Of a stretch of 64,000 nt of DNA, positions 6,300 to 57,951 are shown one piece after another. Below the pieces are notes generated by a model. The model was not told where the DNA came from and made no database searches. It saw only the letters and a program-made list of their open reading frames with translations. Source of the stretch: Acidobacteriota bacterium (lineage in GTDB: Bacteria; Acidobacteriota; UBA6911; RPQK01; JAJDTT01); the NCBI GenBank assembly GCA_965231825.1, contig OZ246889.1, forward strand, positions 4,697,859 to 4,761,858, written 5' to 3'. The position numbers and the translations under genes are program-made. How positions within the stretch are numbered: position 1 is the stretch's first letter; every line of letters starts with the position of its first letter.

Positions 6300-7103
6300 T
6301 TGATCGCGACTGACGCGGAGGCTCTACAAGATTGGTTCTGTGTGCTGAGCCCGCCACTGGACGGCGAGTCCAACATGCGGATCGACCGGCGGCTTCAACT
6401 CTTCGCAGAGCGAAGCCGCCGTCCCGTGACGCTGGTTCGTTTTTACGGTTGGGCGGAGCCGACCGTCTCACTGGGGTGTCATCAAAGTCCTGACCTGGCT
6501 TTCGCCAAGGACTACTGCCAGGCCCACGGCATCCCGTGGGTCCGTCGTCCCACCGGCGGTCGAGCCGTGTTCCACCACGATGAACTCACCTACATGGTGA
6601 CGTCCAACGACGGCAGCCATTTTCCGCTGCAGAGCGTCCGGAGGATCCATCGCGAGATTTCGTCGGCTTTGCAGGCCGGGTTGTCCCGGTTGGGAATCCG
6701 TCCCGTATCGGCGCCAGGAAACAGGCTCCGGGACCGGGCTCTGACACGAGCCCAAAAACCCTGTTTCGTCGCTCCTTCACGGCACGAACTCGTCCAAGGC
6801 ACGAGAAAAATGGTGGGGAGCGCTCAGAAGAAGACGAAGCGCAGCTTCCTGCAGCATGGTTCGATTCCGTTGGTGATTCACTACGATCTCATGGCCGCCG
6901 CTCTGGGAGTCGACCCGGAGTTTCTGAGATCGAAGACCGTCAGTGTATCGGAAGCCGCCGGCCGGCCGGTCTCCTTCCGCGAGTTGTCCCACGCCCTGAT
7001 TCAGGGCTTTCAGCAAGGATTCGGCATCCGCTTCCGGAAGACGATTGACGACTCCCGCGAGTGGTCTCTGGCCATTGCCTCCGGTCAAGCCGTTATGCTA
7101 TAA
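6300..7103 (+). CDS. lipoate-protein ligase/octanoyltransferase family protein (BPL/LPL catalytic domain; LplA/LipM-like)
   Basis: RRPTGGRAVFHHDELTYMV matches the lipoyl/octanoyl transferase R-R-x-x-G-G-x-A-V-x-H-D motif. The start may be the internal M at 6372. Confidence 0.65.
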   Translation: MIATDAEALQDWFCVLSPPLDGESNMRIDRRLQLFAERSRRPVTLVRFYGWAEPTVSLGCHQSPDLAFAKDYCQAHGIPWVRRPTGGRAVFHHDELTYMVTSNDGSHFPLQSVRRIHREISSALQAGLSRLGIRPVSAPGNRLRDRALTRAQKPCFVAPSRHELVQGTRKMVGSAQKKTKRSFLQHGSIPLVIHYDLMAAALGVDPEFLRSKTVSVSEAAGRPVSFRELSHALIQGFQQGFGIRFRKTIDDSREWSLAIASGQAVML

Positions 7104-7138
7104 GAACTCGGCAATTCGCAGCGATTATCTGGTCCGTG

Positions 7139-8203
7139 ATGACGAAGAGTAAGGCCTCGGCGGAACTCACTCAACGCACTTACCAAGTGCTCCACCTGCT
7201 GGTTCTCGAGTACATTCGAACCGGCATGCCCGTCGGCTCCAAGCGGTTGGCGTCACTCCATCAGGAGGGAATCAGTCCCGCGACCATCCGAGCCATCATG
7301 GCCCGGCTGGAACAGGCAGGCTTCCTGAATCAGCCCCACACATCCGCGGGAAGAGTCCCCACCGCCAAGGGCTTTCAGTTTTATATCGATGGATTGGAGA
7401 GGACTCCCGACCTGCCCAACCGGCAAGTGGCCCGGATCCGGCAGATGCTGGAGCAGGAGACGGATCCTGGCGACCTCATGGCCCAGACCTCTCAGATCCT
7501 TTCCCGGCTTTCCAACAATCTGGGGTTCGTCCTGGCGCCGCCTCAATCAGTGTCGGTTCTGAAACGGATCGAGTTCGTGAAGATCTCATCCCGCCGAATC
7601 CTGGCCATACTCGTGACTCGCGCGGGGTTGGTTCAGAGCCGTCTGATTGCGACCAGCCGCCGCCTGAGCCAGGACGATCTGGACCGGGCCGGCCGCTGTC
7701 TCCAGGACCAATTTGAGGGGAGGACCCTTTCCCATATCCGTCGAGAGCTCCGGAGGCTTCAATCCCGGACCGCGCAAGACAGCCGTCCTCGTACCGACGC
7801 CATCCGCCTGGGATCGGCCAGTCTGGTTGGACCGGGGCGAAATCCGGGAAGTGATTCCGAAGTCTATTTCGGCGGAACCTCGAGGCTGCTTCAACAACCG
7901 GAGTTGAACGATCAGGATCGGGCAGCCGGCCTGTTCAGGACCATGGAGAAGAAGAGCCGATTGGCCGAGGTGCTCACCAGGCGCCTCGATGCCGACCAAC
8001 CTGCCCCGCGGGTGACCCTGGACCTGGATCGGCACATCCCGGAGATGCGGGGTTGGGCCATGATTTCCTCACCCTATCTCTACCGTGAACGAGTGGCGGG
8101 CAGCTTGGGGATTCTCGGCCCCAGGCGGATGAAATACGACAAGGGGATCAGTTTGGTTGGATACGTGGCCCGGCTCTTCGGTCAGATCTTGAGCGCGACT
8201 TGA
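7139..8203 (+). CDS. hrcA: heat-inducible transcription repressor HrcA
   Basis: N-terminal winged-helix LTQRTYQVLHLLVLEYIRTGMPVGSKRLA. ~354 aa from the ATG at 7139. Followed by grpE. Confidence 0.85.
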   Translation: MTKSKASAELTQRTYQVLHLLVLEYIRTGMPVGSKRLASLHQEGISPATIRAIMARLEQAGFLNQPHTSAGRVPTAKGFQFYIDGLERTPDLPNRQVARIRQMLEQETDPGDLMAQTSQILSRLSNNLGFVLAPPQSVSVLKRIEFVKISSRRILAILVTRAGLVQSRLIATSRRLSQDDLDRAGRCLQDQFEGRTLSHIRRELRRLQSRTAQDSRPRTDAIRLGSASLVGPGRNPGSDSEVYFGGTSRLLQQPELNDQDRAAGLFRTMEKKSRLAEVLTRRLDADQPAPRVTLDLDRHIPEMRGWAMISSPYLYRERVAGSLGILGPRRMKYDKGISLVGYVARLFGQILSAT

Positions 8204-8336: not shown

Positions 8337-8942
8337 TTGACGACAATGGAACGACCGGAAGACATCCAGAATCAGACTGAAGACTCTCGGGACGAAGAAG
8401 ACCGGGAAATGCCGCAAGGGGACTCCGCCCCGGCCGAGACCGCCGAGTCGGTCTACGAAGAGGCGCTCGAGGACCTCGCCAAGCAACGCGACAAGTACTA
8501 CGATCTGCTGCTCCGGAAACAGGCCGAGTTCGACAACTTCCGAAAGCGGACGGAGAAGAACCGGTTCGAAGCCCGCCTGCAGGGACAGGCCGATCTGGTG
8601 TTGGACCTGCTCCCAGTACTGGATGCCTGCACCAAGGGATTGGAGGCCATGTCGGCGGCCGATCCGGATCCCGCCCTCACGCCGTATCTGGAGGGCTACC
8701 GCCTGCTCGCCGAACAGATGAAGGCGGTGTTGGAGAAGTTCCAGGTGACGACCGCTCCCGGAGTGGGCAGCCAGTTCGACCCCAGGGTTCACGAGGCGGT
8801 GCTTCGAGAGTTCACCCGGGAACATGACGAGGGTACCGTCATCGAGGAGTATCGGCCCGGTTATCTCATTCGCGACAAGCTCCTGCGGGCGGCCCAGGTC
8901 AAGGTGGCCATGCCGCCGCCGGAGGAGTCTCCGGACCAATAG
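8337..8942 (+). CDS. grpE: nucleotide exchange factor GrpE
   Basis: DKYYDLLLRKQAEFDNFRKRTEK is a GrpE signature. 201 aa. Lies immediately downstream of hrcA. Confidence 0.85.
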   Translation: MTTMERPEDIQNQTEDSRDEEDREMPQGDSAPAETAESVYEEALEDLAKQRDKYYDLLLRKQAEFDNFRKRTEKNRFEARLQGQADLVLDLLPVLDACTKGLEAMSAADPDPALTPYLEGYRLLAEQMKAVLEKFQVTTAPGVGSQFDPRVHEAVLREFTREHDEGTVIEEYRPGYLIRDKLLRAAQVKVAMPPPEESPDQ

Positions 8943-9178
8943 CGTTCCCGGCGGCACACTTCGACTTCAAAGGCAAATCCAGCGAAAAGTTCAAGTGACA
9001 GACTGTCTACGAAACTTGATCGCGACGCATGACCCTCTCTTTCGCACCGTCGAAATCCCGACTGTACAAGACGAGCCGACAAATGCTCCGCCGATCCAAA
9101 CTCGGGTTTGTCCTTCTGGGTTGGTCTCGACGGCAAACGAGTTCCTGACGATTCACAGACTGCGCCAAAGGGGGCAAC

Positions 9179-12100
9179 GTGATGGTACATGACGGCGTTT
9201 TCGGTTCGTCTGCAAAACCCTCCACCGAACGTGGGGCGGAAAACCGAGCGGACATGAGTCCCGGAGAGCCGATCGCCATCGTCGGAATGGCCTGCCGGTT
9301 TCCCGGCGCGGAGAACCTGTCCGCCTTCTGGCGTCTGCTCGAAGCCGGCCGGCACGCGGTGACCGAGGGTGATCCGGGCTCCGGCAAGGGGCGCGTCGGC
9401 CAACTCTTCTCCGATTCGGCGGTCCAGAGCGTCGCCTGCCGGTACGGCGCATATCTCGACGGACTCGATCAGTTCGACGCGCCATTCTTCCGGATATCGC
9501 CGGTCGAGGCACAGTTGCTGGATCCCCAACAGCGGCTGATGCTGGAAACCAGTTGGCAGGCTCTCGAGGATGCGGGGATTGATCCGGATCGGTTGAAGGG
9601 CAGCCGCACCGGCGTGTATGCGGGAATCAGCAACAACGAATACCGGGGGATGATCCTGGACGCGAGTGAGACGTCCGAGCCCGCGGCGAGCCTTTATTCG
9701 GTCACCGGCACCTCTTTCAACACGGCGATCGGACGAGTCGCCTTTGTGCTGGGTCTGGAGGGACCGGCGATCGCTCTGGATACCGCCTGCTCGTCATCGT
9801 TGGTCGCGATGCACCAAGCTGTTTCGGGACTGGAGCGGGGAGAAGCGGATCTGGCGCTGGCGGGAGGTGTGCATGCGATCCTGTCCGGCCGGCTGCTGGA
9901 AATGCGCGCCAATGCCGGGATGCTCTCTCCGGATGGACGGTGCGCGACCTTCGACGCGGCCGCGAACGGGTACGTGCGCGGTGAAGGCTGCGGCATCGTG
10001 GTCCTCAAGCGCCTCAGCGAGGCGGAGGCGGACGGCGACCGGATCTGGGGGGTGATCCGGGGTGCGTCCGTGAACCAGGATGGAGCCAGCCCGGGGCTGA
10101 CGGTGCCGAACGAAGCGTCCCAGGAACGGGTCATGGTGGATGCTCTCCTCCGGGCCGGGGTCCGGCCTGTCGACGTGGACTACGTCGAGGCGCACGGGAC
10201 CGGGACCGTTGTTGGAGACCCCATCGAGCTGCGCTCCACGGGGGCGGCGTACGGCGAAGGACGATCGGCGGACTGTCCGCTTCTGATCGGGTCGGTGAAA
10301 ACGAACCTTGGTCACCTGGAGGCGGCGGCGGGAGTCGCCGCGTTGATCAAGGTCGTGCTCTCGATGCGCCACCGCAGAATACCAAGACATCTGCATTTCA
10401 AAGACCCGACTCCGGAGGTGGACTGGGACCGGCTGCCCCTGCGGGTACCTGCCACCGCCATGGACTGGCCACACCATTCCGGCCGTCCGCCACGGGCGGG
10501 AATGAGCGGATTCGGGTGGTCGGGCACGAACGCACATGTGGTCGTGGAGGGGTACGAAGCGACGGACGGCGCCGCCGCCGATTCGGACAGGAGCCGGCGG
10601 CCCGCCGGTTCCCCGCAGCTGATCGCCGTTTCGCTTCCGGAGCAAACCCCGGAGCCGGTTTGGGCGGAGCCGGAGATGACCCGGCGAAGCACCCGTATTC
10701 TGCCCCTTTCGGGCAGGTCGGAAGGAGCGCTGCGGGAATCGGCGGAGCGATACCTGAACTGGCTTGACGGGCACGCCTTGGAACTCGGTTCCGGGGCGGC
10801 CGCCGGCGATCCGCTGCTCTCGGACATGGCTTGGACGGCGGCGGTGGGACGAAGTCACTTCAGCCACCGGGCCGGCGTGTTGTTCCGGGATGCCGGTTCA
10901 CTGCGCGGCCGGTTGCGGGAAGTCGTGGAATCAGAGGATGGACTGGGAACGGCTCCGGCTCCCGAATCGGTCACGAAGATGGCGTTCGTCTACACCGGTC
11001 AGGCCAGCCAATGGGTCGGAATGGGGGCGCAGCTCTACCGGAGCGAGCCGGTCGTGCGGGCGGTTCTGGATCGTTGTGAGGACGTGTTTCAGGAAGCGAG
11101 AGGGCTTTCGCTCCTGGATGCGATGTTCGGCCGCGGCGAGACCGCGGGGGATCTCGATGATCCGGCATGGACGCAGCCGGCAATCTATGCGCTGGAGTGC
11201 GCGCTGACCGCGCTCTGGTCGAGCGCCGGCGTTCGGCCCGGCGTGGTGCTCGGCCACAGCCTGGGAGAGTTGGCGGCGGCCCAGGCGGCGGGAGTGTTCA
11301 GCCTCGAGGACGGGCTGCGGTTCGCCGCGGCCCGAGGGGTGCTGATGGGGAACCTCCCCGGCGACGGGGCGATGGGAGCGATCTTCGCGCCTGCGTCCCA
11401 TGTGGCGGCGGCGGTCGAGGAGATGAACGCGTCGTCCGACGGCCCGGGTCTCAGCGTTGCTGCCGACAACGGGGCACACCAGGCGGTGAGCGGACCGGCG
11501 ACGGACGTCGAGTCGATACTGGAAAGATTCGAAGGAGAAGAGGTCCGCGTCAGGCGTTTGAGAAGGAGCCCCGCCTATCACAGTCCCTTGGTGGATCCGG
11601 TGCTCGATGATTTGGAAGCAGCACTTTCAGGCGTCTCCGTCGCGCCGCCTTCCCTCACCTTCGTCAGTACTCTGACCGGCCGGGCGGTCGACCCCGCCAC
11701 GGCTCTGGACGGGGCCTACTGGCGCCGACAGACGCGAGAACCGGTGGCCTTCCGCCGTGCGGTGGCGACCCTGGCCGAATTGGGAATCGAAGCGGTGGTG
11801 GAAATCGGTCCCCATGCGGTGCTGGGTCCGATGTTGACGCTGGCCTGGCCCGAGTCGGCCGATCCTGCGCAAGTGCCGCCGGTTGTTTCCAGCCTCCGCC
11901 GTCCGGGCAGCCAAGTCTCAAAGGAGGAGGCCGAGGACGCGTTTGCCGCGGCGGTGGCACGGGCGTACGAGGCGGGTCTCCCCATCTCTTTTCCGGGACT
12001 CTTCGCCGGGGAATCCCGGCGCCGGATCTCGCTTCCGGGATACCCGTTCCAACATGAAAGCCATTGGATCAGGGCGCCGAATCGGCGCCGTCCGAGCGCG

Positions 12101-18100: not shown

Positions 18101-19624
18101 ATGAATCAAGGAGTGATTCCGAAACATCTCCACTTCCGGGACCCGACCCCGCATCTGGACTGGGACCGGCTCCCGGTACGAGTGACCTCCGACGCAACGG
18201 ATTGGCCGCATCATGCCGGGCGTCCGCCGCGTGCGGGAGTGAGTTCGTTCGGCCTGTCGGGAACCAACGCACACGTCGTGGTGGAGGCTTGCGGGATACC
18301 GGACGGCGCCTCCTCCACACTCGATGAAGCGCGAAGGCCCGTGGGATCCGCTCGATCCGTCACCGTATCTCAGCCGGCGTCCGGCCTGTCTCCGTCAACA
18401 GTCGATTTGGCTCCTCGCGCGAAACGGATCCTGCCCCTCTCCGGCAGGTCGGACCAGGCGCTCCGGGACTTGGCGCAGCGGTACCTCTCCTGGCTTGACG
18501 AGCGCGCCGGAGATCTTTCGTCCGAATCTGGTGCGCCGGATTCGGTTTTGTCGGATATGGCCTGGACGGCGGGCGTCGGAAGGAGTCATTTCGAGCATCG
18601 GTCCGGTGTCGTTTTCCAGGATGCAGGTTCTTTGCGAGACCGGTTGAACGCGCTCGCAGCGACCGGCGGCGAGACGGAACCACCCACGGCACCGAAGACG
18701 GCCTTCGCATATGCCGGAACGGGCAGCCAATGGGCCGGAATGGGACGGACGCTGTACGAGAGCGAGCCGATCGTCCGCACCGTGCTGGATCGGTGCGACT
18801 CTGCTCTCAAGGAGGCGAGAGGAGGAGACTCGTTACTGAGCGTTCTGTTCGGCCAACCGGGCGCCGGCGGTGTCCTGGACGATCCCGAATGGGCGCAACC
18901 GGCGATCTACGCGTTGGAATGCGCGCTCACCGCGCTGTGGTCCAGCGTCGGGATCCAACCGAGCGTCGTCGCCGGCCATGGTATCGGCGAGTTGGCCGCG
19001 GCCCAGACCGCTGCGGTCTTCAGCCTTGAAGCGGGCTTGCAGTTGGCGGCGGCGCGGGGGGCGGTGACGGCGGACCTCCTGCGAGTGGGGCCGGCGACGC
19101 CTACGGTGGACGGTTTGGATGCGGCAATACGAAGAATCCAGTTCGCTCCGCCGTCTCTCGTCCTGGTCAGCGGTGTGACCGGCGATATCTTGGATCCGGA
19201 TGACGCGCAAGACGGTGAATACTGGCGCCGCCAGGCACACGAAACGGCGGGTTTCGGCAGAAGCGTCCGGTCGCTGGCGAGCCTCGAAGTTGATTTGGTG
19301 GCGGAGATCGGCCCCGATGCCGTACTGGGTTCGATGCTGCCCCGGTCTTGGCCCGGACAGACCGGTGGCGCCGGGTCGACCTTCGCACCACCGGCCGTGC
19401 TTCAGAGTCTACAGCGCCCGTCCTCGAAGGAGCCGGCAGCGGATTGCGGCGGGGGTTTCGTGAATGCGGTGGCAGGAGCGTACGAAGCGGGTCTCCCGGT
19501 TTCCTTCGCCGGGCTGTTCGCTGGGGAAATCCGGCACCGGATTTCCATACCGGATTACCCGTTCCAGCGACGACGTCACTGGTTCAGAACTCCGGAACCG
19601 GCTTCATCCGGCTCAGGAATTTGA
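9179..19624 (+). CDS. type I polyketide synthase, 3481 aa. Domain order KS1-AT1-DH-cMT-psiKR-ER-KR-ACP-KS2-AT2(degenerate). No TE domain.
   Basis: KS1 ~9266-10544: DTACSSS, EAHGTGT, NLGHLE. AT1 ~10979-11850: GHSLGE, AYHS. DH ~12100-12950: HxxxGxxxxP as DHRVFGRLVVP, and DGCFQ. cMT ~13480-14230: LEVGAGTGSAT. psiKR ~14230-14880. ER ~14900-15850: LIHAGAGGVGLAAIQ. KR ~15895-16440: TGGLGGIG, but NHAAAN replaces NYAAAN. ACP ~16740-16960: LGMDSL. KS2 ~17025-18290: DVGCSSS, EAHGGGS, NIGHLE. AT2 ~18690-19560: GHGIGE, ~70 aa shorter than AT1. A ~10.4-kb continuous ORF. Confidence 0.9.
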   Translation: MMVHDGVFGSSAKPSTERGAENRADMSPGEPIAIVGMACRFPGAENLSAFWRLLEAGRHAVTEGDPGSGKGRVGQLFSDSAVQSVACRYGAYLDGLDQFDAPFFRISPVEAQLLDPQQRLMLETSWQALEDAGIDPDRLKGSRTGVYAGISNNEYRGMILDASETSEPAASLYSVTGTSFNTAIGRVAFVLGLEGPAIALDTACSSSLVAMHQAVSGLERGEADLALAGGVHAILSGRLLEMRANAGMLSPDGRCATFDAAANGYVRGEGCGIVVLKRLSEAEADGDRIWGVIRGASVNQDGASPGLTVPNEASQERVMVDALLRAGVRPVDVDYVEAHGTGTVVGDPIELRSTGAAYGEGRSADCPLLIGSVKTNLGHLEAAAGVAALIKVVLSMRHRRIPRHLHFKDPTPEVDWDRLPLRVPATAMDWPHHSGRPPRAGMSGFGWSGTNAHVVVEGYEATDGAAADSDRSRRPAGSPQLIAVSLPEQTPEPVWAEPEMTRRSTRILPLSGRSEGALRESAERYLNWLDGHALELGSGAAAGDPLLSDMAWTAAVGRSHFSHRAGVLFRDAGSLRGRLREVVESEDGLGTAPAPESVTKMAFVYTGQASQWVGMGAQLYRSEPVVRAVLDRCEDVFQEARGLSLLDAMFGRGETAGDLDDPAWTQPAIYALECALTALWSSAGVRPGVVLGHSLGELAAAQAAGVFSLEDGLRFAAARGVLMGNLPGDGAMGAIFAPASHVAAAVEEMNASSDGPGLSVAADNGAHQAVSGPATDVESILERFEGEEVRVRRLRRSPAYHSPLVDPVLDDLEAALSGVSVAPPSLTFVSTLTGRAVDPATALDGAYWRRQTREPVAFRRAVATLAELGIEAVVEIGPHAVLGPMLTLAWPESADPAQVPPVVSSLRRPGSQVSKEEAEDAFAAAVARAYEAGLPISFPGLFAGESRRRISLPGYPFQHESHWIRAPNRRRPSAGHPLLGARHESASGEISFETELFPSDPAWLNDHRVFGRLVVPGALYGAMAVAASASEDTGLQALEDMQLRNPLILPEEEAEERIGEEGRKLQVLLDPPGDDPSRRVRILSRGGGGGWTLHAEGLFSPGSRRPGSEPSLDLENLRSDLPAQDVAAFYRSKAGLGIDLGPQFRTLEAVWSGAGEALGEVAIRNPENEIRSDLHPLLLDGCFQVMSAAAGTAGNEGGVTYLPFAWERLWLTEQVPDRVVCHARMREAPPDRAAASETTEPPEVLTGDLRIYDPSGVLLGGLEGYTVKRATRAALLSAVEGLNELLYEIVWRDSTLAPGMPAADFLPSPAAVAAPPSGLFSDYLAAQGVGREDRNSLLDDLERLSWAYAIKTLDQLGWERQAGADVDSEDLRRRLRVLGDHKRLFRRLLEMLAKAGILVEAGDGFTVVVGSGDPLPEGMANPEEVAARLADLYPHGSNEIGLFRRSAGALPEVLRGGADPLTLLFSSGEPTAADLYLKAPVARAANRMLGDAVRALVASLPPERRLRVLEVGAGTGSATASVLPELPAGRFDYTYTDISAGFFAEAEGRFGEADGALEYRVLDIEKDPVAQGYESHGYDLLIASNVLHATRYLQETLKHCRDLLAPSGQLLALENLRGQGWLDLTFGQLDGWWRFADSYRPHHALASPAIWRQALGDAGFPEVAVLGVDESETAGQPDRGVIMAQGPAEVDEPAGAWILAADEDNVAAELAAELAARNQRVVLAHRQAPENGDGAEDGAGTVRTAVEMERRESWRSLVNDLPDDVPFAGVVHLAALDGHGPEATSAEMAVDARRATETALALVQGVADSDVVPEKGVWLVTRGGQVLERERHGELAGALLWGFGKVVAREAQHLQPRMIDLDPDAAGFLSPLADELLHPDTETHIAYRGGFRRAARLVRSEEGAERLTLPEGTQWLLEPDPRGALERMHVQPMPVRPLDPRDVRVAVEATGLNFWDVFRSIGFIEEGLLGGEMCGHILEVGSDVSTVAVGDRVVGLAFGTFGPEVVTREEMVAPAPAGMSVTALATLPTVFVSAALSYELAALKAGDRVLIHAGAGGVGLAAIQLAHAAGAEVYTTASAKKRAHLRSLGVKHVFDSRQTAFGQEILDATSGAGVDVVLNSLTGEGFIDASLSCLAQGGRFVELARRGILSEEEMAALRPDVDYFILELDTLKEHDPAWPGASLHGVMEQLASGEVTPLIHSRWPLSEARAAMRFMRAARHLGKIVFTTSPLTRGRLREDRTYLVTGGLGGIGCALAEWLADHGAGAIVLNGRRSPDEAAEKVIRALGNRGATVRVELADVTDAAAVEEMLGRMDQDLPPLGGVIHSVGVLSDQSLGNQSWDRFEQVLWPKVLGAWHLHRTTMHQDLDLFVLFSSVAGVLGNPGQANHAAANAFLDQLAGHRRALGLPGQTIAWGAWSGLGEAEEQRERISRQLAVSGTGWISPQQGLRAFERLVRDDATTAMVAAVDWPVYGEAVEGRPSLLEDLLSHVSETGAESPAWSDDLSSRLREAPPGLHEELLVSFLQQEVQAVLRLPSAPAPTVAFFDLGMDSLMAVELRNRLNRAFSGEYTAPNTIVFDYPDIAGLASHLAGELGGVDAEAATQAQPEPESRPSATIDDDGIAIVGMACRFPGAPNLAAFWRLLQAGADAVTEGRQDSGSWRGVAGDPESSDPGVRRGGFVEEIDRFDSRFFRIAPIEARMMDPRQRMLLETTWHAIEDAGVDPDGLKGSRTGVYVGIGNGDYRDLAMASGETHGYLGTSMSIAAGRIAFALGLTGPAVPLDVGCSSSLVAAHQAAFALRQNEVDMALVGGVNAILSPEVTRFMREAGMLSASGRCRTFDSAADGYVRGEGCGMVVLKRLSDATADGDRIWGVIRGSAVNQNGPSAGLIIPNGPAQERVIEEALTRAGIPPAGVDYLEAHGGGSNLGDPIEVLAAAAVFGRGREAEHPLLMGSVKTNIGHLECAAGIASLIKVVLAMNQGVIPKHLHFRDPTPHLDWDRLPVRVTSDATDWPHHAGRPPRAGVSSFGLSGTNAHVVVEACGIPDGASSTLDEARRPVGSARSVTVSQPASGLSPSTVDLAPRAKRILPLSGRSDQALRDLAQRYLSWLDERAGDLSSESGAPDSVLSDMAWTAGVGRSHFEHRSGVVFQDAGSLRDRLNALAATGGETEPPTAPKTAFAYAGTGSQWAGMGRTLYESEPIVRTVLDRCDSALKEARGGDSLLSVLFGQPGAGGVLDDPEWAQPAIYALECALTALWSSVGIQPSVVAGHGIGELAAAQTAAVFSLEAGLQLAAARGAVTADLLRVGPATPTVDGLDAAIRRIQFAPPSLVLVSGVTGDILDPDDAQDGEYWRRQAHETAGFGRSVRSLASLEVDLVAEIGPDAVLGSMLPRSWPGQTGGAGSTFAPPAVLQSLQRPSSKEPAADCGGGFVNAVAGAYEAGLPVSFAGLFAGEIRHRISIPDYPFQRRRHWFRTPEPASSGSGI
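16337..16339 (+). other. KR active-site position: His codon (cac) where the catalytic Tyr of the NYAAAN motif is expected
   Basis: gcg aat cac gcg gcg gcc aat encodes A-N-H-A-A-A-N. The canonical reductive KR motif is N-Y-A-A-A-N. Tyr to His needs a single T-to-C transition. Confidence 0.6.
18980..18982 (+). other. AT2 nucleophile position: Gly codon (ggt) in GHGIG where GHSxG Ser is expected
   Basis: ggc cat ggt atc ggc gag encodes G-H-G-I-G-E, versus AT1 ggc cac agc ctg gga gag encoding G-H-S-L-G-E. AT2 also lacks ~70 aa corresponding to the small subdomain that carries AYHS in AT1. Confidence 0.6.
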
Positions 19625-19923
19625 CGCGCTCTCCGAGGCGGGGGATCGCTGCAGCGACCAGGGTGGACATGTTCCCAAGCAAAGACGAACCTGTGCACTT
19701 GATTGACGTGAAGAGATGAGCTTGCTACCCTTCTTCCCGTTTCAACCCTCCAAATCTTACGAAAGGATCAGCAACCATGGCTTCGACCGAGGAGCGGATC
19801 AGAGAACTCGTTGATGAGAACCTTGAAGTGGACGGTCGTCCGTTAGGCAAACCACTGGATCTGAACACGAACCTGATCGAGGCCGGAGTTTCCTCCATGG
19901 ATGCCGTTGCGTTCATGCAGGTG
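19439..19923. repeat. tandem direct repeat copy 1 (485 bp), covering the PKS 3' end, the intergenic region and the 5' part of the ACP gene
   Basis: Base-for-base identical to 19924-20408 on manual comparison. The ORF-track peptides 19464..19706 and 19949..20191 are identical, as are 19929..20204 and the tail of 19348..19719. Confidence 0.85.
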
Positions 19924-20109
19924 GCGGATTGCGGCGGGGGTTTCGTGAATGCGGTGGCAGGAGCGTACGAAGCGGGTCTCCCGGTTTCCTTCGCCGGGCT
20001 GTTCGCTGGGGAAATCCGGCACCGGATTTCCATACCGGATTACCCGTTCCAGCGACGACGTCACTGGTTCAGAACTCCGGAACCGGCTTCATCCGGCTCA
20101 GGAATTTGA
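19777..20109 (+). pseudogene. chimeric ORF created by the tandem duplication: ACP N-terminus (49 aa) fused to the post-AT linker tail of the PKS
   Basis: MASTEERIRELV...GVSSMDAVAFMQV followed by ADCGGGFVNAVAGAYEAGLPVSFAGLFAGEIRHRISIPDYPFQRRRHWFRTPEPASSGSGI, which is identical to the PKS C-terminus. Confidence 0.5.
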
Positions 20110-20408
20110 CGCGCTCTCCGAGGCGGGGGATCGCTGCAGCGACCAGGGTGGACATGTTCCCAAGCAAAGACGAACCTGTGCACTTGATTGACGTGAAGAG
20201 ATGAGCTTGCTACCCTTCTTCCCGTTTCAACCCTCCAAATCTTACGAAAGGATCAGCAACCATGGCTTCGACCGAGGAGCGGATCAGAGAACTCGTTGAT
20301 GAGAACCTTGAAGTGGACGGTCGTCCGTTAGGCAAACCACTGGATCTGAACACGAACCTGATCGAGGCCGGAGTTTCCTCCATGGATGCCGTTGCGTTCA
20401 TGCAGGTG
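19924..20408. repeat. tandem direct repeat copy 2 (485 bp)
   Basis: Identical to 19439-19923. The junction at 19923/19924 fuses ACP codons 1-49 in frame to the PKS C-terminal tail. Confidence 0.85.
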
Positions 20409-20507
20409 GTGGCCAAGGAGTTCAACGTCACGATTCCGCCGGAAGAATGCGCGAAGATTCGATCCGTCGGGATGTTGATCGAGTATCTCGATACCCACGC
20501 CGGCTGA
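20262..20507 (+). CDS. discrete acyl carrier protein (81 aa)
   Basis: LIEAGVSSMDAVAFMQVVAKEF is a phosphopantetheine-attachment Ser motif in helix-II context. Size is typical of a stand-alone ACP. A good RBS-like aaaggatcagcaacc sits before the ATG. Confidence 0.8.
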   Translation: MASTEERIRELVDENLEVDGRPLGKPLDLNTNLIEAGVSSMDAVAFMQVVAKEFNVTIPPEECAKIRSVGMLIEYLDTHAG

Positions 20508-20855
20508 ACGTTCCTAAATCCCAAAGTGGTCTGCTGCTGAGGCAACGGCCACTGACGTTGTGTCACTCCGCGGGGACATTGCCGGTAGTTTAGCTTCCCA
20601 CTTCAGCTGGTTCGGTGAAACGGGTCCGACCTTTAATTTCCCTTTCCGTACGAAAGTGTTGGTGCCGTCCATTCAGGAAAACCTTTTGCCTTACGACGGT
20701 CCCCAGTTTCAATAGCCAGAACCGATTCCGGTGGCATACCCGGATCGTGACTTCGACCGCAGGGTCCGAAATCAAGGGCAAATGATGAACCTGATGGCTT
20801 CTCGACGGGGGCCGCATTATCCGTCCGACGGTAACATGACGGAGAAACCAGCGGC

Positions 20856-21755
20856 TTGATGAACACGTGGAAAGTCCCCGAACCGCTTTCAACCCACGAC
20901 GTCCGCGTGGATGATGACACCGTCATCACGCTGAGACGCCACGGAAATCCGGCGGGACCGCGACTCGTTCTGTGCCACGGCAACGGTCTGGCCATCGATC
21001 TTTACTACCCTTTCTGGTCGCTCCTGACCGACGAATTCGATCTGGTCGTCTACGATCTCAGAAACCACGGCTGGAATTCCTCCGGATCTCTTCGAGAGCA
21101 GAACATTCCGACGCTGATTCGTGATCATGACCGTCTTGTCGACGCGATCGATCGACGCTACGGGAAGAAGCCGAAAATAGGCGTATTTCATTCCGTCTCG
21201 GCGCTGATCACGCTGCTGTCACCGACTCTGGGAAGCGGATTCTCGGCCCGCGTCCTGTTTGATCCACCCTTGTGCAAGCCGGATGACGGCTATGCGGAAT
21301 TCGAACGGGCATCGACGCGGGTGGCCGCCATGACCCGGCGCCGTACGGACCGGTTTGAGACCAGGGAGGCGTTGGCCGGTTTTCTTCCCTATTTGCCGGC
21401 CTTCCAACGCGTTGTGCCCGGTGTTTGCGATCTCGTAGCGAGGACGACGCTTCGCGAATCTGAAGATGGCGACGGTTATGTGCTTCGATGTCCACCCGAA
21501 TGCGAAGCGCAACTCGTCGATTACGCGAGAGCATTTGCCGTCCTGGTGGACTTTGAGACGCTTCTCTGCCCGACCAAGGTTATCGGGGCCGATCCGACCC
21601 TGCCCTACTCGTATCTGCCCACGATGAACCTGAGCAATATTCTCACCGTCGACTACGATTTTGTTCCCGAAGCGACACATCTTCTTCAACTCGAACAACC
21701 GGAGGAGTGTGTCGCGGCCATGCGTGAATTCATCGATCCCATCGTCCACACTTGA
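20856..21755 (+). CDS. alpha/beta-fold hydrolase, candidate chain-release or editing thioesterase-like enzyme for the PKS
   Basis: LVLCHGNGLAIDLYYPFW (HG oxyanion region), nucleophile elbow IGVFHSVSAL (Ser retained, flanking Gly replaced), and a downstream Asp/His-containing C-terminal half. 299 aa. Confidence 0.7.
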   Translation: MMNTWKVPEPLSTHDVRVDDDTVITLRRHGNPAGPRLVLCHGNGLAIDLYYPFWSLLTDEFDLVVYDLRNHGWNSSGSLREQNIPTLIRDHDRLVDAIDRRYGKKPKIGVFHSVSALITLLSPTLGSGFSARVLFDPPLCKPDDGYAEFERASTRVAAMTRRRTDRFETREALAGFLPYLPAFQRVVPGVCDLVARTTLRESEDGDGYVLRCPPECEAQLVDYARAFAVLVDFETLLCPTKVIGADPTLPYSYLPTMNLSNILTVDYDFVPEATHLLQLEQPEECVAAMREFIDPIVHT

Positions 21756-21948
21756 TCCGAATGGCCACCCGCGAGCGGGAGCCGGAAAGTCTCAATGCGC
21801 CTTTGGAGCCTGCATACCAAGTATCTTGATGCGCGAGGAACCCGCGTCCTTGAATCGGCCGGGTAACGATCTTATGTTAGGGGCTGACGTCCACCCGTCG
21901 TGAATCGCGACCCTAGCGGGATTCCGACGGAAGAGGGAGAAAGCGGCT

Positions 21949-23067
21949 TTGTCCAAGAGAGACTATTACGAAGTTCTCGGCGTGGATCGTAAGGCCACGC
22001 AGCAGGACCTGAAGGCGGCGTACCGGAAGCTCGCCATCAAGTTCCACCCGGACAAGAATCCGGGAGACAAACAGGCCGAAGAGCGTTTCAAAGAGGCCGC
22101 CGAAGCCTACAGCGTTCTAGTCGACCCTCAAAAGCGCGCCCAATACGATCGTTTTGGCCACGCTGGGGTCAGCGGCGCCGGCGCCGGGGGTGGTGGATTC
22201 AGCGGCGATCCCTTCGCCGATTTCAGCGATGTCCTGGGCGATCTCTTCGGTTTCGGCGATCTCTTCGGAGGCGGACGCTCCGGCCGCGGGACACGGTCCC
22301 GCCGCGGCGCCGACCTGAGGTACGATTTCCGAATCTCGTTCGAAGACGCCGTCTTCGGAGCCACGACCAAGATCAAGATCCCCAGACAGGAAACTTGCGA
22401 TTCCTGCAATGGGTCCGGGGCCGATCCCGGGACCGGCCCCATCACCTGCCCCGCCTGTCAGGGTCAGGGCCAGCAGCGCTACCAGCAGGGCTTCTTTACC
22501 ATCAGCCGCACCTGTTCCCATTGCCAGGGCTCGGGACGGATCGTCAAGAACCGGTGCCGCCGGTGCCAGGGGGCGGGCCGGGTTCAGCGGGAAAAAGTCC
22601 TGGAGATCAAGATTCCGCCCGGCGTCGACCAAGGGTCGAAACTGCGCATCGTCGGCGAAGGAGAGGCCGGCCCCAACAAGGGGCCTTCGGGAGACCTCTA
22701 CGTGGTCCTTTCCGTCGAGGAACACCCCTTCTTCCGCCGTGATCAAAACGACCTTCACTGCGAGCTTCCGGTGAGTTTCGTGCAGGCCGCGCTGGGGACC
22801 GAACTGGTGGTCCCGACACTGGAGGGGACGGAAAAGTTGCGGCTGCCGGAAGGAACTCAGCCCGGTACGGTATTCCGCCTCAGAGGCCGGGGAGTCGTGA
22901 GTCCCCGGGGACACGGCCGGGGAGATCAGTTCGTCAAGGTGAAGGTCACCTTTCCCAAGCGGCTGAGCCGCGAACAACGGGAGTTGCTGCTCCAGCTGGA
23001 AACTCTTGAGGAGTCGAACCCGGACAACGAGGGCTTCTTCGGCAAGGTCAAGGAAGTATTCGGATAA
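21949..23067 (+). CDS. dnaJ: molecular chaperone DnaJ
   Basis: J-domain YYEVLGV...HPDKN, G/F-rich region and four CxxCxGxG zinc-finger repeats. 372 aa. Confidence 0.92.
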
Positions 23068-23149
23068 GGGCCCGGCGCTCATCCATCGCCTGCAAACCCA
23101 GATCAGGCATCGGTTGACTCGCCTCGGAGGCGTCCATACACTCCCTCGG

Positions 23150-24019
23150 ATGAAGCGGATCGCGATCCTGCCGGCTTTCGTCCTTCTCTCCGGATCCCTG
23201 TTGGCTCAGCAGCGTCCGCTGATCACCGAACCCGCCAGCACCGTTCCCGAAGGAATGACCCGCTTCGGTTTCGGTTTCGAGTACCTCCAAGACGCCACTT
23301 TCCGGCTCTCCGGACTGAAGGGAAACCTCACCCGCGCCGGCATCTGCGATCTGCGCTTTGGCGTCGGACCCAGAGCCGAGCTCCAGATGGGCTGGACCAT
23401 GCAGGATTTTCTCCACATATCCGAGAGGTTCCCGGCTCCCCACACGGAAAGACTCGCGTTCTCGGGCAATTCGACCAGCGACTACGGAGACCTCTTTGTC
23501 GGCTCCAAGGTCCGTTTCCTGGATGAGAAGAACGGTCGGCCGGCAATGGGCCTGCACTTCCTGGCCCAGATTCCCATCGCTTCGAACGAAACCGGCATCG
23601 GAAATGACGTCACGAACATCTTCTCTGCCCTCGTATTGGAGCGGCACTTCGGCCGTCTGAAGAGCTTCATCAATATGGGTCTGGCCCTCCTGGGAGATCC
23701 CTTGGATGCGGCCGCGCAGGATGACCTGGTTTTGTACGGGATCGGGATGGCCTACCCGGTCACTTCCAAGATAAACCTGGTCGGCGATTTCTACGGAAGG
23801 GCCGGTTCCGGCCGTCACACGGGAATCCCGGTGTCACCCGACATCATTGCCAGTCGATCAGGCATCGGGACCGAGCAACAGAAGAGGCTGCGAGTGGCCC
23901 TGCAGATTCGGGTTGGAGGGCTCTATTTGGATGTGGGGGCCTTTGCCGGGTTGCGAGACACGGACCCCTCGTCCGGCGTGGTCTTCGGACTGTCGAAAGA
24001 TTTCAAGTCCCCGTTCTAG
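23150..24019 (+). CDS. hypothetical secreted/outer-membrane protein (signal peptide MKRIAILPAFVLLSGSLLAQ)
   Basis: Start chosen at the internal ATG 23150, which precedes a signal peptide. The C-terminus ends in F (barrel-like). No family recognised. Confidence 0.5.
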   Translation: MKRIAILPAFVLLSGSLLAQQRPLITEPASTVPEGMTRFGFGFEYLQDATFRLSGLKGNLTRAGICDLRFGVGPRAELQMGWTMQDFLHISERFPAPHTERLAFSGNSTSDYGDLFVGSKVRFLDEKNGRPAMGLHFLAQIPIASNETGIGNDVTNIFSALVLERHFGRLKSFINMGLALLGDPLDAAAQDDLVLYGIGMAYPVTSKINLVGDFYGRAGSGRHTGIPVSPDIIASRSGIGTEQQKRLRVALQIRVGGLYLDVGAFAGLRDTDPSSGVVFGLSKDFKSPF

Positions 24020-24178
24020 GAGTCTGCGCCGTAGGAATGATCGTAGCGAGGAAGTGGGGAATCGAGGCCAGATTGACTCGATTTTGAGGTGCATAGTCGT
24101 TCTATTCGCCGAGAAATCGAGGAAATATGGACCGATTCACCGCTTTCGCAGTAGATCAATTTCTGTGGCGCAGGCTCC
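24019..24178. mobile_element. MITE-like 160-bp element, copy A, with ~20-bp terminal inverted repeats
   Basis: ggagtctgcgccgtaggaat...atttctgtggcgcaggctcc. ~95% identical to 40814-40973. Lies between the convergent OMP gene and nrdJ. Confidence 0.7.
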
Positions 24179-24208
24179 TGGCCCGCAAATCTCACCGCGT
24201 CGCCGAAC

Positions 24209-26914
24209 TCAACTACAGCCTGAAGTGGTCCCGCAGACGGTGCAGACATAGCAGTTTCCGTTTCGCTGCATCAGGTTCCCGCACTGGAGACAGGCGGGCG
24301 AATCCGCCTGAACGTCCTGCACCAGCTTTCCCGACGGGCTGGCCGGTTCGGCAGACCGGGAGTACTCGGAAAAACTCACTTGGACTCCATCCTGGACGCT
24401 TCCGTTGGGCCGAACCTGGTGGATGCCGAGCGTCTCCTGGATCTCGGTGTCCAGAAATCGACTCGCCAGGTAACGGACCACGTAGTCGGGAATGGAGGTC
24501 GCGAACGGAATCTGGGGATTGTCGGTGAATCCAGCCGGTTCGAAGCTCATGTGGGAGAACATTCGGACATAGTCCTCAAGAGGCACTCCTCGCTGGACCC
24601 CCATGGAAATGGCGATGGCCCAGGCCATGGCCATGCCCTGCAGCGTGGAGCCCTGCTTCGAGAAATTGACGAAGATTTCGCCCAACTCCTCGTCTTCCGG
24701 ATACATCCCCATGGTCAGGAAACCCTTGAATCCACGGATTCGGAATTCATGCTGTAGCGCCGGGTGATCCTTGGGCATGTTCCGGTGCTGAGCCGTGAGA
24801 CCCTGGCGCCCGCTGTCCTTGGTCGACAGCGGTTGGACCAGCTTGCATCCGTCCCGGTAGATGGAGACGGACTTCATTCCATGTTTCCAGCCCTGGATAT
24901 AGGCATCCTTGATCTCTTCGACCGTGGCCGAATTGGGGAGATTGACGGTCTTGGAAATCGCTCCGGAGAGAAAGGGCTGGACGGCGCCGCACATCTTGAT
25001 GTGCCCCATGGGATGAATGAAACGGCTCCCCTTGGCCGGGGTGTCCGCGCAATCGAATACGGGGAGATGGTCCCTCACCAGGTTGGGCGCACCCTCTATC
25101 GTATCCTTCCGGTTGATGTAGTCCAGAATCGCCTTCTGCTCCCCCTCGTCGTACCCCAGAGTCCGGAGAGCGCGGGGAATGGTGTGGTTGACGATCTTGA
25201 GGGTGCCTCCGCCGACCAGCTTCTTGATCTTCACCAGTGAGAAGTCCGGCTCGATGCCGGTGGTGTCGCAATCCATCATGAAGGCGATGGTTCCCGTCGG
25301 CGCCAGAAGAGTCACCTGTGCGTTCCTGAAGCCCGCCTGAGTCCCCTTCTCGATGGCTTCGTCCCAAACTTCCATGCTGGCGTGCAGCAGGTTCATGGGC
25401 ACCAGGGCCGAATCGATCTGGGAAAGGGCACTCCGGTGCTTGTGGATGACACCCATCATGGGAATACGGTTGCTTTCGAAGCCGGCGAAGGTCCCCATGC
25501 GCTCGGCGATCCGGGAACTGGTCAAGTAGGCCTGCCCCGTCATCAGCGCGGTGATGGCGGCGGCCGTGTTCCGCGCCTGGTCGCTGTCGTAGGGCAGGCC
25601 CTGCGCCATCAGGTACGCGCCCAAATTCGCGAATCCCAATCCCAACGTCCTGAAGTCGTGACTGATCTCTTCGATCTCTTCAGTGGGATAGCTGGAGTTG
25701 TCGACGATGATCTCCTGGGCCAGGATCAGGACGGATACGGCATGGCGGAAGGACTTGATGTCGAACTGCCCGTCCGGCTTCAGGAACTTCATCAGGTTCA
25801 GAGAGGCCAGGTTGCATGCCGAGTTGTCGAGGAAGACGTACTCGGAGCAAGGATTGCAGGCATTTATGGGACCGGCGTTGGGACTCGTGTGCCACTCGTT
25901 GAGAGTGGTCTTGAATTGCAGGCCGGGATCGCCGCACTGCCACGTGGCTTCGGCGACCCACTGCATCATATCGGCAGCCTTGTAGACGCGGTCGACCTTG
26001 CCGTCGGTGACCCGGCGAGTTCTCCACTCGCCGTCGGAAATCACCGCTTTCATGAATTCATCCGTCACCCCGACGCTGTTGTTGGCGTTCTGGAATTGGA
26101 CGGACCGGTAGGCCTCACCATCGATGGAGTCGTCATACCCCAATTCGATGAGCTGCTGAGCCTTCTTCTCTTCCTTGGCCTTGCACCAGATGTACTCCTC
26201 GATGTCGGGATGTTCGGCATCGAGAATGACCATCTTGGCGGCCCGGCGGGTTGCGCCGCCGCTCTTGATCGCTCCGGCGAAGCTGTCATATCCCCGCATG
26301 AAGGAGACGGGACCCGAGGCAAATCCTCCGGCGGCGAGGGGTTCCGTGGAGGCGCGGATCCTGGACAGGTTCACGCCCGAGCCGGAGCCTCCCTTGAAAA
26401 TGGTGGCTTCGGTCCGGGCCAGCTTCATGATGTGCTCCATGGAATCGTCCACGGTGTTGATGAAGCAGGCGGAACACTGGGGCTTCTGCTTGATCCCGAC
26501 GTTGAACTGAACCGGCGAATTGAACGCCGCGACCTGATGCAGAAGGAGATAACTCAGCTCGTAGTTGAAGGTCTTGGCGTCACTCTCCGAGTCGAAGTAA
26601 TCCATCTTGGAGCCCCAATCCGCGATGGTATCGACGATGCGCCCGATGAGTTGCTTGACGCTCCGCTCCCGCCCGGGGGTTCCCAGGTGGCCGCGGAAGT
26701 ACTTGCTGGAAACGATGTCGGTTGCCCGTTGGGACCAGAACTTGGGAAACTCCAGATCGTCTTGGCGGAAGCTGACCTTGCCCGTCTTCCAATCCTTGAT
26801 TTCAGCGGAACGCGTTTCCCATTCCACATCATCGAAGGGATGGATGTCGGGTCTGGAGAAATGGTGCTTCAATTGAATCCGAGATCCCGATACCTCCTGC
26901 GCCAACTTCCGCAT
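24209..26914 (-). CDS. nrdJ: class II (adenosylcobalamin-dependent) ribonucleotide reductase NrdJ with C-terminal Cys4 zinc ribbon
   Basis: 901 aa. The RNR large-subunit fold is recognisable across the protein, and the C-terminus is CLQCGNLMQRNGNCYVCTVCG. Confidence 0.88.
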   Translation of the reverse strand: MRKLAQEVSGSRIQLKHHFSRPDIHPFDDVEWETRSAEIKDWKTGKVSFRQDDLEFPKFWSQRATDIVSSKYFRGHLGTPGRERSVKQLIGRIVDTIADWGSKMDYFDSESDAKTFNYELSYLLLHQVAAFNSPVQFNVGIKQKPQCSACFINTVDDSMEHIMKLARTEATIFKGGSGSGVNLSRIRASTEPLAAGGFASGPVSFMRGYDSFAGAIKSGGATRRAAKMVILDAEHPDIEEYIWCKAKEEKKAQQLIELGYDDSIDGEAYRSVQFQNANNSVGVTDEFMKAVISDGEWRTRRVTDGKVDRVYKAADMMQWVAEATWQCGDPGLQFKTTLNEWHTSPNAGPINACNPCSEYVFLDNSACNLASLNLMKFLKPDGQFDIKSFRHAVSVLILAQEIIVDNSSYPTEEIEEISHDFRTLGLGFANLGAYLMAQGLPYDSDQARNTAAAITALMTGQAYLTSSRIAERMGTFAGFESNRIPMMGVIHKHRSALSQIDSALVPMNLLHASMEVWDEAIEKGTQAGFRNAQVTLLAPTGTIAFMMDCDTTGIEPDFSLVKIKKLVGGGTLKIVNHTIPRALRTLGYDEGEQKAILDYINRKDTIEGAPNLVRDHLPVFDCADTPAKGSRFIHPMGHIKMCGAVQPFLSGAISKTVNLPNSATVEEIKDAYIQGWKHGMKSVSIYRDGCKLVQPLSTKDSGRQGLTAQHRNMPKDHPALQHEFRIRGFKGFLTMGMYPEDEELGEIFVNFSKQGSTLQGMAMAWAIAISMGVQRGVPLEDYVRMFSHMSFEPAGFTDNPQIPFATSIPDYVVRYLASRFLDTEIQETLGIHQVRPNGSVQDGVQVSFSEYSRSAEPASPSGKLVQDVQADSPACLQCGNLMQRNGNCYVCTVCGTTSGCS

Positions 26915-57788: not shown

Positions 57789-57951
57789 GTGCTGTCCCGA
57801 GTTTGCCCTTTCTATCGAATTCCGGCGCCGCGGCAGGATACCCGTCCTTTCCCTGTCATCCGGTTCAGGCCGGAGAAGGTGCTACAATACCGAAGATTCG
57901 GGAAACCTGACAAGCGTGCCCCGGGGCGCTATCCGACCCTCAGCCGGCATC

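Follow-up and report, generated by a model that had tools for sequence, protein, structure and literature searches.

A putative reduced sup-type polyketide synthase cassette between grpE and dnaJ of an acidobacterial genome

Organization of the locus and of the encoded proteins

The 64,000-nucleotide (64-kb) stretch of contig OZ246889.1 from an Acidobacteriota bacterium (assembly GCA_965231825.1) is referred to here as the window. Between the chaperone genes grpE and dnaJ it carries a cassette of three genes coding for a type I polyketide synthase (PKS), a discrete acyl carrier protein (ACP) and an alpha/beta hydrolase, and the identity, history and regulation of this cassette are the subject of this study. 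An earlier reading of the sequence alone (the sequence-only reading) had placed the three genes between grpE and dnaJ on one strand, which was borne out by Pfam and the open reading frames (ORFs). Its hrcA, grpE and dnaJ calls were likewise supported by Pfam. The locus is composed as follows.

7139-8203, + strand: hrcA (heat-shock repressor), upstream flank, with an ATG at 7139 (Pfam HrcA, E 6e-49)
8337-8942, + strand: grpE, left border of the insertion (Pfam GrpE, E 4e-41)
8943-9178, + strand: spacer between grpE and the PKS gene, about 236-237 bp, no terminator-like site (terminator scan, alignment)
9179-19624, + strand: supA-like type I PKS, 3481 aa (Pfam, translation, motif positions)
20262-20507, + strand: discrete ACP (supB-like), 81 aa, with a GVSSMD attachment-site motif (Pfam PP-binding, E 2e-10)
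20508-20858, + strand: spacer between the ACP and hydrolase genes, site of a lost Sfp-type phosphopantetheinyl transferase (PPTase) gene (comparison with relatives)
20859-21755, + strand: alpha/beta hydrolase, 298 aa (Pfam Abhydrolase_6)
21949-23067, + strand: dnaJ, downstream flank (Pfam DnaJ, DnaJ_CXXCXGXG and DnaJ_C)

For the hydrolase, the ATG at position 20859 is a likelier start than the TTG at 20856. No dnaK was found among the scanned ORFs of the 64-kb window, and no tRNAs were found in the window.

The domain order of the PKS was determined with Pfam to be ketosynthase (KS), acyltransferase (AT), dehydratase (DH), C-methyltransferase (cMT), enoylreductase (ER), ketoreductase (KR) and ACP, with another KS and a degenerate AT (written AT° below) after them. 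The 10.4-kb ORF has no interruption. For the KS, AT, DH, cMT, ER, KR and ACP domains, this agrees with the sequence-only reading, including the second KS-AT pair.

9266-10399, + strand: KS1, aa 30-407 (Pfam)
10985-11911, + strand: AT1, aa 603-911 (Pfam)
12104-13003, + strand: DH, aa 976-1275 (Pfam)
13655-14158, + strand: C-methyltransferase, aa 1493-1660 (Pfam)
14996-15853, + strand: ER, aa 1940-2225 (Pfam)
15899-16429, + strand: KR, aa 2241-2417 (Pfam)
16742-16942, + strand: ACP1, aa 2522-2588 (Pfam)
~17033-18260, + strand: KS2, aa ~2619-3028 (Pfam)
~18698-19553, + strand: AT°, aa ~3174-3459, truncated and without the nucleophile serine (Pfam, motif)

In the translation, KS1 shows the motifs DTACSSS, EAHGTGT and KTNLGH, and AT1 carries GHSLGE together with a malonyl-type xAYHS motif. 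The KS2 motifs are DVGCSSS, EAHGGGS and KTNIGH, so that its Cys-His-His set is intact. Where AT1 has GHSLGE, the second AT has GHGIGE, so that the nucleophile serine is missing. In addition, its stretch from the GHGIGE motif to the post-AT linker falls short of that of AT1 by about 69 residues. The designation of this AT as degenerate in the sequence-only reading is therefore correct, and the statement that no thioesterase (TE) domain follows was borne out as well.

The C-terminal KS2-AT° part of the PKS was compared with the NCBIfam models of Pks13, Pks2 and PfaA, and scores of 597 bits (cut-off 2100), 464 bits (2400) and 246 bits (1010) were obtained, respectively. A mycocerosic-acid-synthase-like, Pks13-like or polyunsaturated-fatty-acid-synthase-like identity was rejected, since these scores are far below the cut-offs. 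Two sub-threshold matches to the Rfam family ASpks, a mycobacterial antisense small RNA, were found on the minus strand at 17963-18037 (38.9 bits) and 10187-10300 (24.5 bits), i.e. antisense to both KS-coding regions, while the gathering score is 52. An RNA gene at these positions was rejected; the most likely source of the matches is KS sequence conservation.

The gaps of 237, 350 and 194 bp listed in the sequence-only reading were found to be correct, but no length had been given there for the gap between the PKS and ACP genes. It is 637 bp long owing to a duplication at this junction, which that reading had overlooked.

19439-20409, + strand: perfect tandem duplication with a 485-bp unit in 2.0 copies, 100% identical (TRF score 1942, repeat search)

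The unit extends over the final 186 bp of the PKS gene and the spacer into the ACP gene, of which it holds the initial 148 bp. The spacer part carries a promoter-like motif of the ACP gene, which is hence doubled. A chimeric ORF of 110 aa (19777-20109) results, in which ACP residues 1-49, including the serine attachment motif, are followed by the last 61 residues of the PKS. One complete PKS gene and one complete ACP gene are left by the duplication. In the 94% identical relative L002 (related loci are designated by L numbers) the duplication is absent, and the gap between the two genes is 157 bp. The duplication may be a very recent real event or an assembly artefact. For the ACP itself, the matches to NCBIfam ACP models were below the cut-offs. 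The ACP gene adjoins the PKS gene in nearly all family loci (tblastn).

The catalytic triad of the hydrolase (Ser112-Asp245-His274) and an HG oxyanion motif are invariant across 30 and 36 homologues in two alignments. The AlphaFold2 model was of moderate quality (pLDDT 70.7, pTM 0.68), and the Foldseek matches were generic lidded alpha/beta hydrolases with a TM score of about 0.5 and 15% identity, among them the CurM thioesterase, zearalenone lactonases and monoacylglycerol lipases. Only weak matches were obtained when the sequence was searched against the PDB and NCBIfam. Judged by the model and its matches, the role of the protein would be compatible with a thioesterase, a lipase-like enzyme or an acyltransferase, and it is regarded as a putative chain-release enzyme.

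Distribution of the family and relation to the sup clusters

For the identification of relatives, the genomes of GTDB species representatives were scanned with the KS2-AT° part of the PKS as query. A total of 548 relatives was detected. The family results given here refer to the best 80 of these 548, with 79 family loci in the tblastn comparison with the window proteins. The best 80 are metagenome-assembled genomes (MAGs) of more than 12 phyla, and nearly all of them are 57-64% identical to the query regardless of phylum. They belong to Acidobacteriota, Bryobacterales, Binatia, Longimicrobiales/Gemmatimonadota, Latescibacterota, Thermodesulfobacteriota, Nitrospinota, Nitrospirota, Alpha- and Gammaproteobacteria, Dehalococcoidia, Rhodothermales and Opitutales. 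The RHO, COS, APA and ASG MAG series presumably stem from sponge microbiome projects, as recognized by their names. Hosts among the best 80 also include the SB066x MAG series, and SB066x Poribacteria bins are listed among the sponge-associated Entoporibacteria (PMC7883664).

The KS2-AT° didomain is present in all relatives. Across about 80 loci, the Cys and both His residues of KS2 are kept (motif comparison), as are all motifs of module 1. The serine of the second AT is absent in all of these loci, where the motif reads GxGxGE or GHDxGE.

A complete PKS, a small ACP and a hydrolase occur together in almost every family locus (tblastn). The most complete order is exemplified by the Latescibacterota locus L012, in which the PKS gene is followed by genes for an ACP, an Sfp-type PPTase, a hydrolase and a transporter of the Xan_ur_permease family. 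Within 10 kb of the PKS gene, a permease gene was identified in about 60 and a PPTase gene in 28 of the 80 loci. An intact PPTase gene occupies the position between the ACP and hydrolase genes in L012 and 27 other loci, and fragments of it remain in L002 (48% identity over 102 aa) and L009. In the corresponding spacer of the window no trace of the PPTase gene was detectable, and the alignment shows a further deletion there. Neither was a permease gene found within the 64-kb window. The cassette of the window has thus lost the PPTase gene and is without the permease gene. Loci of the Binatia type also have no clustered PPTase gene, yet are conserved.

The sup ("sponge symbiont ubiquitous PKS") cluster is said to have been described by Fieseler et al. 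in 2007, and also by Hochmuth et al. in 2010; in 2007, sup clusters were reportedly presented as the PKS genes that predominate in sponge microbiomes. Sup proteins are unusually small monomodular PKSs that dominate among the KS amplicons of high-microbial-abundance (HMA) sponges. The monomodular Sup type is specific to HMA sponges, and mid-chain-branched fatty acids were proposed as its product (PMC4245539). In the Aplysina aerophoba clone pAPKS18, SupE is listed as a permease (PMC3908369, Table 1). Sponge MAGs from several phyla, Acidobacteriota among them, were found to contain SUP-like cluster families irrespective of taxonomy (PMC9426513). No account of the Sup architecture was found in PMC7196800, PMC2613160 and the supplement of PMC4245539, and no homologue match in the sequence searches bore a Sup name.

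The five-gene set with a permease, the module resembling fatty acid synthase (FAS) with a methyltransferase (MT), the host range and the abundance fit the sup clusters. The cassette very probably belongs to the sup family, as judged by published descriptions. In view of this fit and of the phylum-independent family of 548 relatives, the sequence-only reading that the organization is not a described system is not supported.

Integration, regulation and state of the cassette

Homologues of GrpE form a tight group with 83-93% identity, after which the identity drops to 59% or less. In the outgroup Acidobacteriota L084, L085 and L086 (GrpE identity 59%), grpE is located 91-254 bp from dnaJ, which represents the empty site. 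The outgroups share the flanking synteny of the window; their gene order is SPL, ParB, TPR, UvrD, HtrA, LipB, HrcA, GrpE, DnaJ, PrmA, RsmE ... RNR, YggS, Tmk, and the position of hrcA is the same as in the window. The suggestion that the PKS block is an insertion into an ancestral hrcA-grpE-dnaJ array is thereby upheld by comparison with related genomes. Only three of the 79 family loci (L002, L004 and L009), all of them Acidobacteriota, have hrcA, grpE and dnaJ beside the cassette. Their flanks are 84-97% identical to those of the window, and dnaJ is 94-97% identical in these three loci. The same left junction as in the window was found in L083. In the ORFs flanking the insertion no integrase or transposase match was obtained with Pfam.

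Within this clade, an intact and vertically related PKS allele is shared by the window, L002 and L004. Another allele, 61-70% identical to the PKS of the window, occurs in L009 (2126-12598) and L083 (10649 onward). Its first ~2600 residues are 74-82% identical to PKSs of Latescibacterota, Nitrospira sp., Gammaproteobacteria and Longimicrobiales. Around this allele, the flanks, ACP and hydrolase are still 84-94% identical, and nucleotide identity falls at the borders of the PKS gene. This points to an in-place xenologous replacement of the 10-kb PKS gene in L009 and L083.

In L081 (10681-14555) and L082 (10681-13297), all that is left of the PKS is a 229-aa remnant in which the KS1 N-terminus is joined to a KS2 fragment, which suggests a deletion by recombination between both KS repeats. 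A shortened PPTase gene and the hydrolase gene follow this remnant, and the chaperone genes are intact. The hydrolase gene of L081 is split by an IS605-family OrfB/TnpB element.

A remnant of a further gene was identified beside the cassette.

21795-21839, + strand: 15-codon remnant (MRLWSLHTKYLDARG) of a Pyr_excise/denV-like (T4 endonuclease V-like) gene (comparison with relatives)

The length of this gene is 86 aa in L081 and L082, 69 aa in L009, 36 aa in L002 and 15 codons in the window, a series that shows a stepwise gene decay beside the cassette.

Taken together, the cluster was probably acquired horizontally by the ancestor of one Acidobacteriota clade, and the cassette of the window would represent a reduced sup copy at an incidental location. 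The allele swap and the stepwise decay in the sister genomes document the movement and loss of the cluster among bacteria.

Three promoter-like motifs were identified at the locus.

7075-7104, + strand: sigma70-like motif TTGCCT-N17-TATAAG upstream of hrcA, inside the 3' end of lipB (alignment, consensus resemblance only)
20188-20216, + strand: sigma70-like motif TTGACG-N17-TAnnnT upstream of the ACP gene, with its duplicate at 19703-19731 (alignment)
21849-21878, + strand: ancestral dnaJ promoter-like motif CTTGAAT-N16-CTTATGTT, right border of the insertion (pattern search)

The motifs of hrcA and the ACP gene are conserved in the window, L002, L004 and L009 (alignment). The dnaJ motif, CTTGAAT-N16-CTTATGTT, which we take to resemble sigma32-type heat-shock promoters, lies about 70 bp upstream of dnaJ and has one match in 64 kb, compared to 0.03 expected. 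All eight acidobacterial loci with dnaJ (8/8) have it at the corresponding position, including the cassette-free outgroups, where it directly follows the grpE stop codon (L084 5172-5198; L085 10625-10651). Its position in the outgroups indicates that the cassette landed in the short spacer that separates the grpE stop codon from the dnaJ promoter. Since the ancestral motif is kept downstream of the insertion, dnaJ should not be dependent on read-through.

For the CIRCE operator (TTAGCACTC-N9-GAGTGCTAA), no match with three or fewer mismatches was found in 64 kb, although hrcA is adjacent. Its core GCACTC-N9-GAGTGC had chance-level matches only in the 64 kb, all inside coding regions, and no suitable inverted repeats were found in the spacers of the window. 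No promoter was revealed in the spacers by the generic scan, and terminator-like sites were fewer than in shuffled sequence. In the alignment of the window, L002, L004 and L009, there was no conserved promoter motif for the PKS gene. Downstream of grpE, the scan revealed no terminator-like site ahead of the PKS gene. The spacer between these two genes measures 49 bp in L083; in L004, its length is about 100-130 bp. The missing terminator and the 49-bp spacer of L083 make it plausible that transcription reads through from hrcA-grpE into the PKS gene.

The sequence-only reading had raised a co-regulation of the cassette with the HrcA-controlled heat-shock genes. The missing terminator and the 49-bp spacer are in line with this part of the proposal, whereas the missing CIRCE element, the own motifs of dnaJ and the ACP gene, the restriction to one clade (3/79) and the decay observed there speak against it. 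A capture of the sup cassette into the hrcA-grpE transcription unit of this clade appears unlikely from these sequence features. If it were true, a stress- or heat-responsive Sup lipid would be expected, which would be the first regulatory clue to the purpose of the pathway, and the three-gene version would also define the core set for reconstitution.

The functional form of such a capture, in which the synthesis of methyl-branched lipids rises with heat or folding stress as a membrane-fluidity response within the chaperone regulon, is doubtful. It would account for the same-strand orientation throughout without a terminator-like site between grpE and the PKS gene, for the short spacers in L083 and L004, for an arrangement that is kept in at least five related species-level genomes and for a foreign PKS allele at exactly the same site in L009 and L083. 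However, no CIRCE is present in 64 kb, the ACP gene and dnaJ are preceded by a conserved and an ancestral promoter-like motif of their own, respectively, and 76 of the 79 family loci are found in unrelated contexts. Furthermore, the PKS of L081 and L082 was cut to the 229-aa remnant with the chaperone genes unharmed, and the spacer sequence is unconserved across the window, L002, L004 and L009. Most likely, the cassette came to lie in the chaperone block by a neutral integration accident and not by regulatory design, as suggested by these distributions and motifs. An annotation as a "heat-shock operon PKS" would then describe an integration accident and not a new chaperone-linked pathway.

For the analysis of selection, dN/dS was calculated according to Nei-Gojobori for the window versus L002 and L004. 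Values of 0.21 (PKS), 0.10 (ACP) and 0.13-0.15 (hydrolase) were obtained. They are within the range of the flanking genes hrcA, grpE and dnaJ (0.06-0.25), which indicates purifying selection in this lineage and argues for three functional cassette genes. Between the window and L004, the dS of the cassette genes (0.61-0.90) is about twice that of hrcA, grpE and dnaJ (0.30-0.41). This raised dS could be due to recombination within the cassette or to different codon constraints.

It is quite unlikely that the cassette of the window is a non-functional relic awaiting deletion as in its close relatives. Such a state would agree with the PPTase gene that is gone where relatives have the gene or fragments, with the absence of a permease gene in 64 kb and with the chimeric ORF caused by the 485-bp duplication. 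The advanced decay and the IS605-family insertion in L081/L082 and the reduction of the neighboring Pyr_excise gene to 15 codons would fit as well. On the other hand, the 10.4-kb ORF is unbroken with every catalytic motif intact, the ACP and the hydrolase with its invariant triad are intact, and the dN/dS values of 0.10-0.21 resemble those of the flanking housekeeping genes. In addition, a clustered PPTase gene is also missing from the conserved Binatia-type loci, and a complete PKS gene and a complete ACP gene survive the duplication.

Several further observations were made in the surroundings of the cassette. The genes prmA and rsmE, located downstream of dnaJ in the outgroups (L084, L085), are missing at 23067-24209 of the window. 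Here, dnaJ is followed by a signal-peptide protein (within the ORF 23006-24019, no Pfam match). In L085, a Phenol_MetA_deg outer-membrane protein is encoded after rsmE, which may or may not match the signal-peptide protein of the window. Two transposase genes are located on the minus strand at 27727-29052 (DDE_Tnp_1/DUF772, IS5-like) and 29214-29900 (DDE_3, IS630-like), between the genes for a class II ribonucleotide reductase and thymidylate kinase, where yggS (Ala_racemase_N) is found in relatives. Two pairs of a histidine kinase and a sigma54-dependent response regulator (48538-52790, minus strand; 57721-61628, plus strand) are unrelated to the PKS cassette. One of the two sensor kinases has a 7TM-HisKA, GAF and PAS architecture and the other is NtrY-like.

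Proposed biosynthesis and comparison with known systems

The first seven domains of the PKS (KS-AT-DH-cMT-ER-KR-ACP) are proposed to iterate in the manner of an animal-type fatty acid synthase with full reduction. The xA(F/Y)HS motif of AT1 indicates that malonyl units would be used. In certain rounds, the C-methyltransferase would add a methyl branch dependent on S-adenosylmethionine (SAM), yielding a saturated methyl-branched acyl-ACP. KS2 could then take over the finished chain for one more decarboxylative condensation with malonate bound to the free-standing ACP. Since AT° lacks the serine and part of the fold, this ACP would be loaded in trans by AT1. The Ser-Asp-His hydrolase might release or transfer the product, and both ACPs would be activated by a PPTase encoded elsewhere in the genome. 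In about 80 relatives, KS2 is always intact and its AT is always dead, hence the last step is probably a real condensation that is served in trans by AT1. As no reductive domains follow the active KS2, a 3-oxoacyl intermediate is predicted.

This last prediction bears on the question whether the cassette could represent a separate family of highly reducing PKSs outside the sup clusters, which would produce a specialised polyketide such as a ketone derived from a beta-keto acid, a pyrone or an olefin. A 3-oxo product in place of a fatty acid would be consistent with it. The link to sup was drawn from published descriptions, and the CurM thioesterase, an enzyme of olefin-forming off-loading, ranks high among the structures that match the hydrolase. 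However, these structural matches are generic (TM ~0.5, 15% identity), and the scores of the KS2-AT° part with the NCBIfam models of Pks13, Pks2 and PfaA remain far below the cut-offs. Moreover, the host range, the sponge-MAG provenance, the abundance, the monomodular FAS-like organization with an MT and the linked permease all fit sup. A separate family is thus very unlikely.

The reading preferred here, a horizontally acquired and reduced sup copy at an incidental site, has to be weighed against several points. The match to sup, whose type proteins SupA-E belong to the clones pAPKS18 and pSW1H8, was made by description. SupA itself reportedly ends in KS-AT according to Fieseler et al. 2007. 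The 3-oxoacyl thioester expected from module 2 would fit poorly with a plain methyl-branched fatty acid. No demonstrated product or role was found for any sup cluster in the cited sup papers, and the biochemical steps given above are inference. The argument for a neutral location draws solely on the distribution and the promoter motifs. Finally, the loss of the PPTase and permease genes together with the tandem duplication could mean that decay is under way, as in L081 and L082.

What is new here is a reduced member of a known, biochemically uncharacterised family. It is chiefly of comparative value, for its minimal gene set, for the KS2/AT° pair conserved among the relatives, and for the replacement of the PKS allele in place and the decay in sister genomes. 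As a natural minimum of PKS, ACP and hydrolase under purifying selection, the three genes suggest a core set for heterologous reconstitution.

Compared to the sup clusters, the cassette shares the single FAS-like module with an embedded C-methyltransferase and the spread over many phyla of sponge-associated bacteria, the relatives of the window PKS being about 60% identical. A small ACP, PPTase, hydrolase and permease also accompany the PKS in most relatives. In contrast, the copy in the window is without PPTase and permease genes and has the 485-bp junction duplication. It is also located between grpE and dnaJ, a context of one acidobacterial clade only.

With respect to the hrcA-grpE-(dnaK)-dnaJ operons controlled by HrcA/CIRCE, hrcA, grpE and dnaJ of the window are found in the usual order on one strand. 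The window differs in having neither CIRCE nor, among the scanned ORFs, dnaK and in the separate promoter-like motif of dnaJ. The cassette-free outgroups are likewise without dnaK at this locus.

The swf cluster (PMC3908369) is similar in its monomodular FAS-like PKS, which is widespread in HMA sponges independent of taxonomy. Unlike the PKS of the window, SwfA has the domain order KS-AT-DH-ER-KR-ACP, without an MT and without a terminal KS-AT. SwfA also lacks the DPQQ and HGTGT motifs, both of which are present in KS1 of the window. Its partners are the reductase-sulfotransferase SwfB and the radical SAM protein SwfC, whereas the partners in the window are the ACP and the hydrolase.

Fungal highly reducing PKSs and the mycobacterial mycocerosic acid synthase (Mas) types have the same KS-AT-DH-(cMT)-ER-KR-ACP order and a presumed iterative full reduction in common with the window PKS. 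Mas uses methylmalonyl-CoA, whereas the PKS of the window has a C-methyltransferase instead. By comparison, the family described here is bacterial, has an extra competent KS fused to a dead AT and pairs a separate alpha/beta hydrolase with a separate ACP for release.

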